DNA of 64,000 nucleotides from Candidatus Bathyarchaeota archaeon (GTDB lineage Archaea > Thermoproteota > Bathyarchaeia > 40CM-2-53-6): the NCBI GenBank assembly GCA_963706285.1, contig CAVPLU010000004.1, forward strand, positions 256,001-320,000, given 5' to 3'. Positions 8,316-57,949 of this stretch are shown one piece after another; within the stretch, counting starts at the first letter, position 1, and every line of letters starts with the position of its first letter. Made by a program: the position numbers and the translations under genes. Under the pieces are notes generated by a model that was not told where the DNA came from, made no database searches, and saw only the letters and a program-made list of their open reading frames with translations.

Positions 8316-8331
8316 GATGAAGGTTTTATAG
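8316..8331 (+). promoter_or_regulatory. BRE/TATA promoter of tRNA-Gln
   Basis: GATGAAGG-TTTTATA at 8316-8330, about 25 nt upstream of the inferred leader start (~8355). Confidence 0.6.
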
Positions 8332-8370
8332 CGACATCGTGGTCGGGGTAGTCTTGGCCCGGGGCTCGAT

Positions 8371-8535
8371 AGCCCGGTGGGGGAGCAGTAGGTTGCTCCG
8401 CCGAATGTAGTGGACAAAGGAAACCGTATTCCGTCTAGGCATAGCGGGCTTTGGTTCTCGCTCAACGAGAAGAAACCCGCCGACGGGAGTTCGAATGGTT
8501 CGTCAGAGAACCCGAACATCTCCCCCGGGCTACCA
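8371..8535 (+). tRNA. tRNA-Gln(UUG) with four BHB introns (8381-8405, 8418-8438, 8455-8474, 8496-8518) and encoded CCA
   Basis: Removing the four inserts gives a 76-nt cloverleaf AGCCCGG TG GTGT AGTGGACAA GCAT A GCGGG CTTTGGA CCCGC CGAC GGGAG TTCGAAT CTCCC CCGGGCT A CCA, with the archaeal Gln A1-U72 pair. Each junction forms a 4-bp helix flanked by 3-nt bulges. Confidence 0.93.
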
Positions 8536-8621
8536 TCAACCACCGTCATTAACTTAGAGGTGGTTTCTCATCAGGGCAATCAACGCCCATGACCCACGCC
8601 TTTCCGGCCTCGATGAGAACT

Positions 8622-8666
8622 CTCAAAGTGGCCCCTCTTTCCCGGAAAGCGGCCCCTCTTTGGAGC
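8622..8666 (+). repeat. Dispersed ~45-bp element, copy 1 (two AAAGYGGCCCCTCTTT units, 21-bp period)
   Basis: CTCAAAGTGGCCCCTCTTTCCCGGAAAGCGGCCCCTCTTTGGAGC; near-identical inverted copy at 55322-55367. Confidence 0.8.
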
Positions 8667-8777
8667 ATGTGATCAACCATGGAGGCTCTCCAGCATGATA
8701 GCCTTCATAGGGAGATTTTCCGAGAACGATTTAGCGGAATCGGAAGAAGTCCCTTTGATTGCATCACTAGCGTTTCA

Positions 8778-57730: not shown

Positions 57731-57893
57731 TGGCGCCGCCGGAAGGATTCGAACCTCTAGTCGCGCCCGCGCGCTTCGACCAACGGGTCGCTGCCATGTG
57801 GCTAACAGCTTCAGCCTCAATCTTCTCGATTGAGTCCGCTGCTCTGCCACTGAGCTATCGTCTATGATCAAAGGATTGATCGTAAACGGCGGC
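57731..57893 (-). tRNA. tRNA-Asn(GUU) with four BHB introns (57885-57857, 57835-57810, 57802-57789, 57775-57757) and encoded CCA
   Basis: Removing the inserts gives a 75-nt cloverleaf GCCGCCG TA GCTC AGTGGCA GAGC A GCGGG CTGTTAA CCCGT TGGTC GAAGG TTCGAAT CCTTC CGGCGGC G CCA; BHB geometry at each junction. Confidence 0.92.
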
Positions 57894-57932
57894 TCTATTC
57901 GGCGGCACCGATTTCACGGAGCCTCAAGCCGC

Positions 57933-57949
57933 TTATTTAAGAGTTCATC
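57933..57949 (-). promoter_or_regulatory. BRE/TATA promoter of tRNA-Asn
   Basis: GATGAACTC-TTAAATAA on the minus strand, about 23 nt upstream of the inferred leader start (~57909). Confidence 0.6.

Follow-up and report, generated by a model that had tools for sequence, protein, structure and literature searches.

A leader copy of the acceptor 5' strand accompanies acceptor-adjacent tRNA introns in a Bathyarchaeia genome and its relatives and may act as a folding decoy

Introduction

The DNA analyzed here, called the window below, is a stretch of 64,000 nucleotides of a Bathyarchaeia genome (G000:C4:256001-320000, in which G000 stands for this genome and the C-numbers for its contigs). It contains a gene for tRNA-Gln(UUG) that is interrupted by four introns. 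This gene raises the question of how a precursor tRNA can be spliced when its first intron lies so close to the acceptor stem that the splice site and the stem lay claim to the same nucleotides. A short leader precedes the gene, and the first part of this leader is a near-copy of the acceptor 5' strand of the same tRNA. The original prediction, which was made from the sequence of the window, proposed that such a copy is a general solution for introns whose bulge-helix-bulge (BHB) motif competes with the acceptor stem.

We examined this proposal in the window, in the rest of the genome and in relatives of the same order. The observation that the leader carries a copy of the acceptor strand was confirmed, and the interpretation given to it is supported by comparative and thermodynamic evidence. 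We consider it rather probable that the leader of pre-tRNAs whose first intron lies at 7/8 to 10/11 carries a cis-acting decoy, in which 7 nt at the 5' end of the transcript repeat the sequence of the acceptor 5' strand. The comparisons and the folding models suggest that the copy probably holds the acceptor 3' strand so that the splice site can fold.

The tRNA-Gln gene and its leader

The gene occupies positions 8371-8532 of the plus strand. It starts with AGCCCGGTG at 8371, its bases 8525-8532 read CCGGGCTA, and an encoded CCA follows at 8533-8535. Gene models were obtained by applying a relaxed BHB rule, in which fewer than 4/4 central pairs were permitted, together with recursive splicing, and by submitting the products to ARAGORN. 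When the four introns are excised, a 73-nt sequence plus CCA is left, which forms a regular cloverleaf and is called tRNA-Gln(ttg) by ARAGORN. The five exons are collinear within 8371-8535, which is not the arrangement of a split or permuted gene.

The central helix of the first intron has 4 bp, one of them G.U, and is formed by 8375-8378 (CGGT) with 8400-8403 (GCCG). The bulges, GG|G and AA|T, have 3 nt each and lie on opposite strands. The inner helix has 7 bp and the outer helix with the 3' exon only 1 bp, which is the HBh' class. That is, the intron shows the sequence features of an archaeal BHB-type intron, namely a central helix with its bulges, a flanking helix and a cloverleaf that is restored by excision. 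Because the central helix uses C5-U8, this BHB is incompatible with the acceptor pairs 5-68 to 7-66. Among the orthologues of the genus, the helix arms of the first intron are conserved and its loop varies. The intron helices of the gene show compensated changes among these orthologues, and the intron loops and the 3' flank vary; in the second intron, the substitutions of one orthologue (L007) are located inside the intron.

The leader, 8355-8370, reads TGGCCCGG-GGCT-CGAT. The 8-bp pairing that had been claimed between the near-copy of AGCCCGG in this leader and the 3' end at 8525-8532 was found as described; it is UGGCCCGG : CCGGGCUA and includes one G.U pair (8356 with 8531). The pairing is extendable by U8355, and G8363/G8364 with C8524/C8523 could give 10 bp. 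In the minimum free energy (MFE) structure predicted by RNAfold for 8356-8535, bases 8356-8362 pair with 8525-8531, bases 8363-8366 with 8371-8374, and bases 8375-8380 with the 3' part of the intron. This structure is the one that the original prediction had drawn, in which GGCU closes a hairpin with A1-C4 and leaves C5-U8 to the CGGU/GCCG helix. In the MFE fold, the helix of the leader GGCT with A1-C4 adjoins the central helix of the BHB. Every other statement made there on the anatomy of leader, tRNA and 3' end at 8355-8535 also agreed with the sequence, the BHB scan, ARAGORN and the fold.

The predicted energy was -81.0 kcal/mol with the leader and -72.8 kcal/mol without it, in which case the ordinary acceptor stem forms. 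In the predicted ensemble, the decoy pairs with the 3' strand with a probability of 0.98, and the probability of the BHB central helix is 0.51 with the leader versus 0.00 without it. All 7 full-length orthologues within the genus have the leader heptamer GGCCCGG unchanged, and they vary in the segment from the TATA box to the leader. The BHB scan found no valid BHB ending at -1/+1 of tRNA-Gln. The predicted partner of the leader is the acceptor 3' strand, a part of the mature tRNA, and not a trailer, so that the leader does not have the pairing by which leaders of split or permuted genes are recognized.

Distribution of the copy in this genome

The tRNA genes of the genome were collected with a finder that requires a 7-bp acceptor seed with at most two G.U pairs plus a T arm that is contiguous or split by one BHB intron. 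It returned 40 genes, which is less than a full set, since genes that do not offer both the 7-bp stem and the T arm are missed. A T-arm search in which any gap was permitted was too noisy and was dropped. We defined a leader match as seven consecutive nucleotides, at an offset of 5-30, all of which (7/7) pair with the acceptor 3' strand of the same tRNA, with no more than two G.U pairs among them.

A match was present in seven of the eight genes whose first intron lies at or before 10/11, versus 1/32 of the genes that are uninterrupted through position 15 (Fisher p = 3e-6). The eight genes are those of Gln, Asn, Arg-CCG, Cys, Met, a Ser-like and a Pro-like tRNA, and one gene of unsettled model; the Ser-like gene (C13:147535) was parsed by hand, and in the Pro-like gene (C3:165727) the first intron alone was placed. 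The copies of the seven matching genes lie at offsets of 6-20, and each of them fits the acceptor of its own tRNA (GGCCCGG, GCCGCCG, GGGCGGG, GCCGGGG, GGGCCC(G), GCCGGGA and GGGGCTG). Two copies are not identical to the acceptor strand, and their differences preserve the pairing as G.U. The second tRNA of the window for which a copy of its own acceptor had been reported is tRNA-Asn(GUU) on the minus strand, and it indeed carries an exact GCCGCCG at 57906-57900. A paralogue provides a control for tRNA-Gln: a second tRNA-Gln gene on contig C12 has the same acceptor stem and no 10/11 intron, and it has no copy.

In order to see how often such matches arise by chance, the same 40 genes were scored in two other regions. 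Matches were found in 8/40 own leaders versus 0/40 in the 3' flank and 0/40 at -62 to -31, which agrees with the claim that the copies exceed chance. One explanation would be that a heptamer which is rich in G+C and partly palindromic recurs by chance; CCGG-rich acceptor strands are partly self-complementary, and leaders do cross-match the 3' strands of other tRNAs in 52/1474 pairs. However, this explanation is contradicted by the counts in the two control regions and by those in the relatives (90/106 versus 0/54, see below), and we regard its probability as negligible.

Distribution of the copy among relatives

We then surveyed seven tRNA families in 40 genomes of the same order. The gene of each relative was classed as interrupted or uninterrupted according to whether the mature 5' sequence of the family was broken or unbroken in it. 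Loci L138-L167 had been selected via the pattern itself and were excluded from every count. The finder detected no tRNA end in 20 of 196 loci, namely 8 Gln, 6 Arg, 3 Cys and 3 Pro-like loci, which were left out of the counts. The values are counts of genes, not of evolutionary events. An automatic classifier of intact and proximal genes mis-filed four Gln genes and left 47/146 entries without a class, and its counts were discarded.

The results are shown in Table 1. Summed over the seven families, 90 of the 106 interrupted genes had the copy at 7/7, seven had it at 6/7 and nine had none, and it was found in 0/54 uninterrupted genes. A further 16 uninterrupted tRNAs of other kinds in the same loci had no copy. 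That is, the copy tracks the intron, being present or absent with it within several families and within single genomes. No tRNA-Gln orthologue with the 10/11 intron was missing the leader complement. The proposal of a general solution for such introns thus holds across seven families, without being universal.

Table 1. Genes carrying a leader copy of their own acceptor strand in seven tRNA families of 40 related genomes
Family	Interrupted genes	Uninterrupted genes with copy	Remarks
Gln	10/10 at 7/7	0/12	genera g1, g11 and g13, three families; same 10/11 site
Asn	n=30: 27 at 7/7, 3 at 6/7	no uninterrupted gene found	12 genera
Arg	n=10: 7 at 7/7, 3 at 6/7	0/3	
Cys	19/19 at 7/7	0/7	five genera
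Met	12/12 at 7/7	0/4	
Ser-like	n=21: 13 at 7/7, 1 at 6/7, 7 none	0/9	
Pro-like	n=4: 2 at 7/7, 2 none	0/19	

The surroundings of the copy are variable. The spacers of the Asn genes range from 5 to 15 nt and differ in sequence too, and in pairwise comparisons the 10 nt that precede the copy show an identity of 0.29-0.59. For the copy itself, such a value is conditioned on detection and is therefore biased; the unbiased measure is the fraction of orthologues that retain the copy.

These data bear on the possibility that the copy is a functionless historical footprint of the duplication or rearrangement that made the 5'-proximal intron or shifted the promoter. The copies of Met and of C3:155344 are simple tandem repeats, and the copy has the very distance from the TATA box that the mature 5' end has in an ordinary gene, as is expected of a displaced ancestral 5' end. 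However, the heptamer is retained in 27/30 Asn, 19/19 Cys and 10/10 Gln genes from several families of the order while the spacers and the upstream 10 nt diverge. The copy also stays within the bounds of the acceptor strand, and where it has substitutions, pairing persists as G.U. An origin by duplication would in any case be compatible with subsequent selection. We therefore think that a footprint devoid of function is a distinctly unlikely explanation.

As a rough guide to the range of the copy, the pattern GCCGCCG N{4,20} GCCGCCGT was searched for in 401 genomes of the class. It matched in 51/58 genomes of the genome's own family and in most families of the order, and outside the order its matches look mostly like coding repeats. 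This search indicates a rough range only, and its reversed control is confounded by the T that precedes the copy in many leaders.

Promoter geometry and the predicted start of transcription

Most ordinary tRNA genes of the genome have their best TATA-like box ending at a distance of 22-29 nt from +1. Because of this short gap, ordinary leaders can have a few nucleotides at most, and the genes appear nearly leaderless. In the genes with a copy, the TATA box ends 28-40 nt before +1 and 21-27 nt before the start of the copy; the one outlier, at 16 nt, has a low-scoring box (C3-:165727). Their predicted leaders have about 13-21 nt with a conserved heptamer, which is not the form of an ordinary leader for RNase P. 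Since the gap from TATA box to copy equals the ordinary gap from TATA box to +1, the copy is expected to be the first transcribed segment.

The TATA box that had been reported for tRNA-Gln is present, at 8324-8331, and is conserved in 7/7 orthologues. Judging from the promoter geometry, we place the transcription start of tRNA-Gln at the copy. Between the TATA box and the leader there is a conserved block, CTCGGGGTAG, which lies upstream of this predicted start and is probably not transcribed. The GGTAG in this block is complementary to CTACC at 8530-8534, which includes the CC of CCA; such a pairing is possible only if the block is transcribed.

The coincidence of the copy with the predicted start would also be seen if the copy were a promoter or initiator element acting at the level of DNA, or were itself untranscribed. 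In the Arg, Cys and Met genes, only 21-22 nt separate the TATA box from the copy, and the start could thus lie within it. In contrast, the sequence of the copy is specific to each family and always corresponds to the family's own acceptor, which is not how a shared element would behave, and the ordinary tRNA genes have no copy. We regard this explanation as very improbable.

Another possibility is that the first exon is in reality the upstream copy, in which case the stretch between the two copies would belong to a further intron. A weak BHB-like candidate exists at 8352-8369, and splicing between direct repeats gives an identical product, so that the sequence alone cannot place the splice. 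However, the base that follows the copy is not the universal U8 but G in Gln and A or G in Asn, Cys and Arg. The Gln copy used as an exon would yield G1.U72 and lose G10, and the downstream copy together with intron 1 gives a tRNA that ARAGORN accepts. That the upstream copy is an exon is therefore extremely improbable. The BHB-like candidate at 8352-8369 was also considered as a means of removing the leader, and it was rejected; its G.U pairs fall at positions that vary among the orthologues, and it ends one base short of +1.

Predicted folding of the seven genes and the processing machinery

Partition functions were calculated for the seven genes of this genome with the leader and without it. 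With the leader, the probability of pairing between the copy and the 3' strand was about 1 in 6/7 genes. The probability of the acceptor stem, which was 0.83-1.0 without the leader, fell to 0 with the native leader in all seven genes. The probability of the BHB central helix rose from 0.00 to 0.81 in the Met gene, to 0.99 in the Ser-like gene and to 0.97 in the Pro-like gene, as it did to 0.51 in the Gln gene. In these models, a switch between the decoy fold and the acceptor fold is thermodynamically plausible.

The same pairing might serve as a lock on the order or quality of processing, by masking the acceptor end from RNase P, from CCA and 3'-end enzymes and from aminoacylation. The complete loss of the acceptor stem with the leader in all seven genes is what such a lock would produce. 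The Asn, Cys and Arg genes, in which no central helix is predicted, also fit it, the decoy helix of Asn and Cys being formed regardless. RNase P RNA is present in the genome, as a full-length archaeal form at C4:378576-378861 (183.7 bits). A general lock would, however, show no specificity for the position of an intron, and nearly all tRNA genes of this genome have introns, yet the copies are found in 7/8 genes with an early intron and in 1/32 others. Thus, a general lock is disfavored, and we consider it unlikely as an explanation of the copy; it overlaps with the proposed role as a decoy for splicing, and both may hold.

The genome also has two genes of the EndA family, with open frames of 200 and 181 aa (C12:149004-149243 and C6:75200-75433). 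Two EndA paralogues fit the heteromeric type of endonuclease, which has broad specificity.

Proposed mechanism and points that weigh against it

Returning to the decoy, we propose that it would act as follows. For the BHB of the first intron, one strand of the central helix would have to come from acceptor positions 2-8, and this helix and the 7-bp, G+C-rich acceptor stem would be mutually exclusive. By capturing the acceptor 3' strand, the decoy would leave the true 5' strand free to remain part of this BHB. Once the intron had been cut out and the exons ligated, the partner in the intron would be lost, and the true 5' strand would displace the decoy to give the cloverleaf. The leader of 13-21 nt, which would now be single-stranded, would then be removed, presumably by RNase P. 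Sequence comparison and folding models are the basis on which we infer that the copy is transcribed and pairs in vivo, that it affects splicing and that processing follows this order.

Several points weigh against this mechanism. The predicted folds do not favor it in every gene. Folding of the Asn and Cys genes, each of which has 3/4 central pairs, yields no BHB central helix, although the decoy helix still forms, and folding of the Arg gene yields neither helix. When the tRNA-Gln transcript is made to start at 8343, the leader is predicted to fold on itself and the normal acceptor stem forms. A search for RNA runs that contain the locus found none, and the contigs of four runs contained only the unspliced gene of close strains, and no joints. 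In this genome there are two exceptions to the distribution, namely the interrupted gene C13:56558, the model of which is uncertain and which has no copy, and the uninterrupted gene C3:155344, which has a tandem GCGGCC copy. Among the relatives, the nine interrupted genes without a copy are seven Ser-like genes of genera g2, g3 and g5 and two Pro-like genes, from which it follows that introns near the acceptor can be retained without a decoy. The counts overstate the number of independent events, because related genomes share descent. Finally, the acceptor stems are invariant within every family, and for this reason the covariation of leader and acceptor 3' strand within a family is uninformative.

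The seven Ser-like genes without a copy (L201, L202, L203, L208, L209, L211 and L212) have an 8/9 intron, and their leaders share a conserved GACCTGAAsGCGGG, which is predicted to form a hairpin. This hairpin may solve the same problem in a different way, or it may be an unrelated element.

A wider form of the proposal can be offered tentatively, and we hold it with less confidence. It is possible that the decoy is a general cis-acting RNA chaperone which licenses acceptor-adjacent introns and imposes a fixed order of splicing, strand exchange and removal of the leader by RNase P. Since its location corresponds to that of the mature 5' end in an ordinary gene, the copy may also be a trace of the origin of such introns, through duplication or displacement of the 5' exon. 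Other archaea rich in introns, for example Thermoproteales and Asgard archaea, may use the same device.

If the decoy acts as proposed, the position of the promoter, the length of the leader and the position of the intron would be joined in one design, and an obligatory order of processing is predicted. The decoy would also constrain where introns can be gained and retained.

Comparison with known systems

The leaders and trailers of split and permuted tRNAs are G+C-rich and complementary, and they are selected to pair and thereby to enable the BHB (PMC4090602, PMC3218864, PMC4033280). The present genes are like those of Nanoarchaeum equitans, Staphylothermus, Thermofilum pendens and Cyanidioschyzon merolae in that sequence outside the mature tRNA pairs so that a BHB can form. 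They differ in that the leader of a split or permuted tRNA has its partner in the trailer of the other half or end and forms the BHB itself, and the splicing endonuclease cuts it away. The present genes are contiguous; their leaders would pair with the acceptor 3' strand and lie mostly outside the BHB, and they would have to be removed at +1.

Non-canonical and multiple BHB introns occur in the tRNAs of Thermoproteales (PMC4090602), and Asgard families have up to five introns per tRNA gene (preprint 10.64898/2026.10.13.758758). The genes described here are similar to these in their D-arm, T-loop and acceptor-proximal intron sites, in their hBHBh' or relaxed motifs and in being missed by standard finders; they differ in lineage, which here is Bathyarchaeia. 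In the covered text of PMC4090602 and of the preprint 10.64898/2026.10.13.758758, the leader sequences of cis-spliced genes are unmentioned, and the word "leader" is absent from that of the preprint. A full-text search of the literature returned no account of cis-spliced genes in which the leader copies the acceptor strand; Marck and Grosjean 2003, Sugahara 2007/2008 and the supplements were outside its scope and could hold a prior note. The literature covered, as far as its texts extended, offers no explanation of how precursors with acceptor-adjacent introns fold in spite of the conflict between BHB and cloverleaf, and the decoy is a concrete and testable answer. The sequence definition of an acceptor-strand decoy leader applies to the Gln and Asn genes of the window and to 90/106 interrupted genes of the relatives.

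In the processing stems of archaeal rRNA, the paired 5' and 3' flanks present a BHB to the same endonuclease (PMC7714728). Unlike these flanks, which pair together and hold the cleavage sites, the 5' flank of the present genes would pair with mature RNA and would not itself be cut. In attenuators and riboswitches, the choice between two folds depends on an upstream segment that can claim, in competition, one of the two strands of a downstream helix. The present leaders resemble these systems, with their antiterminator logic, in having mutually exclusive helices. In contrast to them, the outcome here would be a choice of RNA processing in a tRNA precursor, and no termination, ligand or ribosome would be involved.

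Features of the two tRNA genes and minor observations

The features of the tRNA-Gln and tRNA-Asn genes are listed in Table 2.

Table 2. Positions in the window of the features of tRNA-Gln(UUG) and tRNA-Asn(GUU)
Feature	Position	Strand	Remarks
tRNA-Gln TATA-like box TTTTATAG	8324-8331	+	kept in 7/7 full-length genus orthologues; 24 nt to copy start
Conserved block CTCGGGGTAG	8342-8351	+	kept in 7 genus orthologues amid varying neighbors; not in genus g11
tRNA-Gln leader decoy (putative) GGCCCGG	8356-8362	+	near-copy of acceptor 5' strand AGCCCGG; pairs 7/7 with 8525-8531
tRNA-Gln spacer	8363-8370	+	GGCT pairs A1-C4 (8371-8374), loop CGAT closes; partly variable among orthologues
tRNA-Gln exon 1, tRNA positions 1-10	8371-8380	+	8375-8378 = 5' strand of intron 1 BHB central helix
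tRNA-Gln intron 1, position 10/11, 25 nt	8381-8405	+	BHB scan; inner helix GGAGCA/TGCTCC; GCCG 8400-8403 pairs C5-U8
tRNA-Gln exon 2, positions 11-21	8406-8417	+	ARAGORN after splicing
tRNA-Gln intron 2, position 21/22, 21 nt	8418-8438	+	BHB candidate; sole choice giving normal D arm
tRNA-Gln exon 3, positions 22-37, anticodon TTG	8439-8454	+	ARAGORN after splicing
tRNA-Gln intron 3, canonical position 37/38, 20 nt	8455-8474	+	BHB scan and ARAGORN after splicing
tRNA-Gln exon 4, positions 38-59	8475-8495	+	ARAGORN after splicing
tRNA-Gln intron 4, position 59/60, 23 nt	8496-8518	+	hBHBh' candidate, inner helix 5 bp, outer helix 5 bp
tRNA-Gln exon 5, positions 60-73, and CCA	8519-8535	+	acceptor 3' strand 8525-8531; discriminator A8532
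tRNA-Asn(GUU), four introns	57734-57893	-	recursive splicing and ARAGORN
tRNA-Asn introns	57885-57857 (8/9), 57835-57810 (30/31), 57802-57789 (37/38), 57775-57757 (50/51)	-	
tRNA-Asn leader decoy (putative) GCCGCCG	57900-57906	-	exact copy of own acceptor 5' strand
tRNA-Asn TATA-like box CTTAAATA	57934-57941	-	27 nt to copy start

The first intron of tRNA-Asn (8/9) has a relaxed BHB with 3/4 central pairs and uses C3-C6. The 30/31 intron of this gene breaks the outer helix of the BHB of the 37/38 intron, which suggests an order in which the two are removed.

The Gln and Asn genes, which occupy 8371-8535 (+) and 57893-57731 (-) of the window and have four introns each, were both missed by ARAGORN and by Rfam at gathering thresholds, and neither program detected a tRNA anywhere in the unspliced 64-kb window. 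In the whole genome, the intron option of ARAGORN gave 26 calls, which were partly wrong, and a search with RF00005 gave 31 matches. The decoy could therefore be used as a sequence signature in annotating tRNA genes that these programs miss. Most tRNA genes of this genome have an encoded CCA, and almost all have introns.

The genes C3:155198-155350 (-) and C13:56558-56725 (+) are related and share the acceptor 3' strand CGGCCGC. The C3 gene has the tandem GCGGCC directly upstream; the C13 gene has no leader copy, and its TATA box lies only 24 nt from +1. The C13 gene may have an intron inside the acceptor stem.

The second tRNA-Gln gene lies at C12:127304-127611. Over its 3' half and a further 100 nt or so downstream, it is 93% identical to the window gene; its 5' half, leader and promoter region are unlike those of the window gene, and it is without the 10/11 intron. 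The last 14 nt of the window tRNA-Gln and about 140 nt of its 3' flank (8519-8675) are repeated at C3:122514-122669 (94%) and at C18:10422-10573 (81%), and these repeats may be att-like remains of an element that was integrated at the tRNA. A stretch of about 90 nt downstream of tRNA-Gln (approximately 8590-8680) has at least 13 further copies in the genome with 78-95% identity, and is thus a dispersed short repeat.

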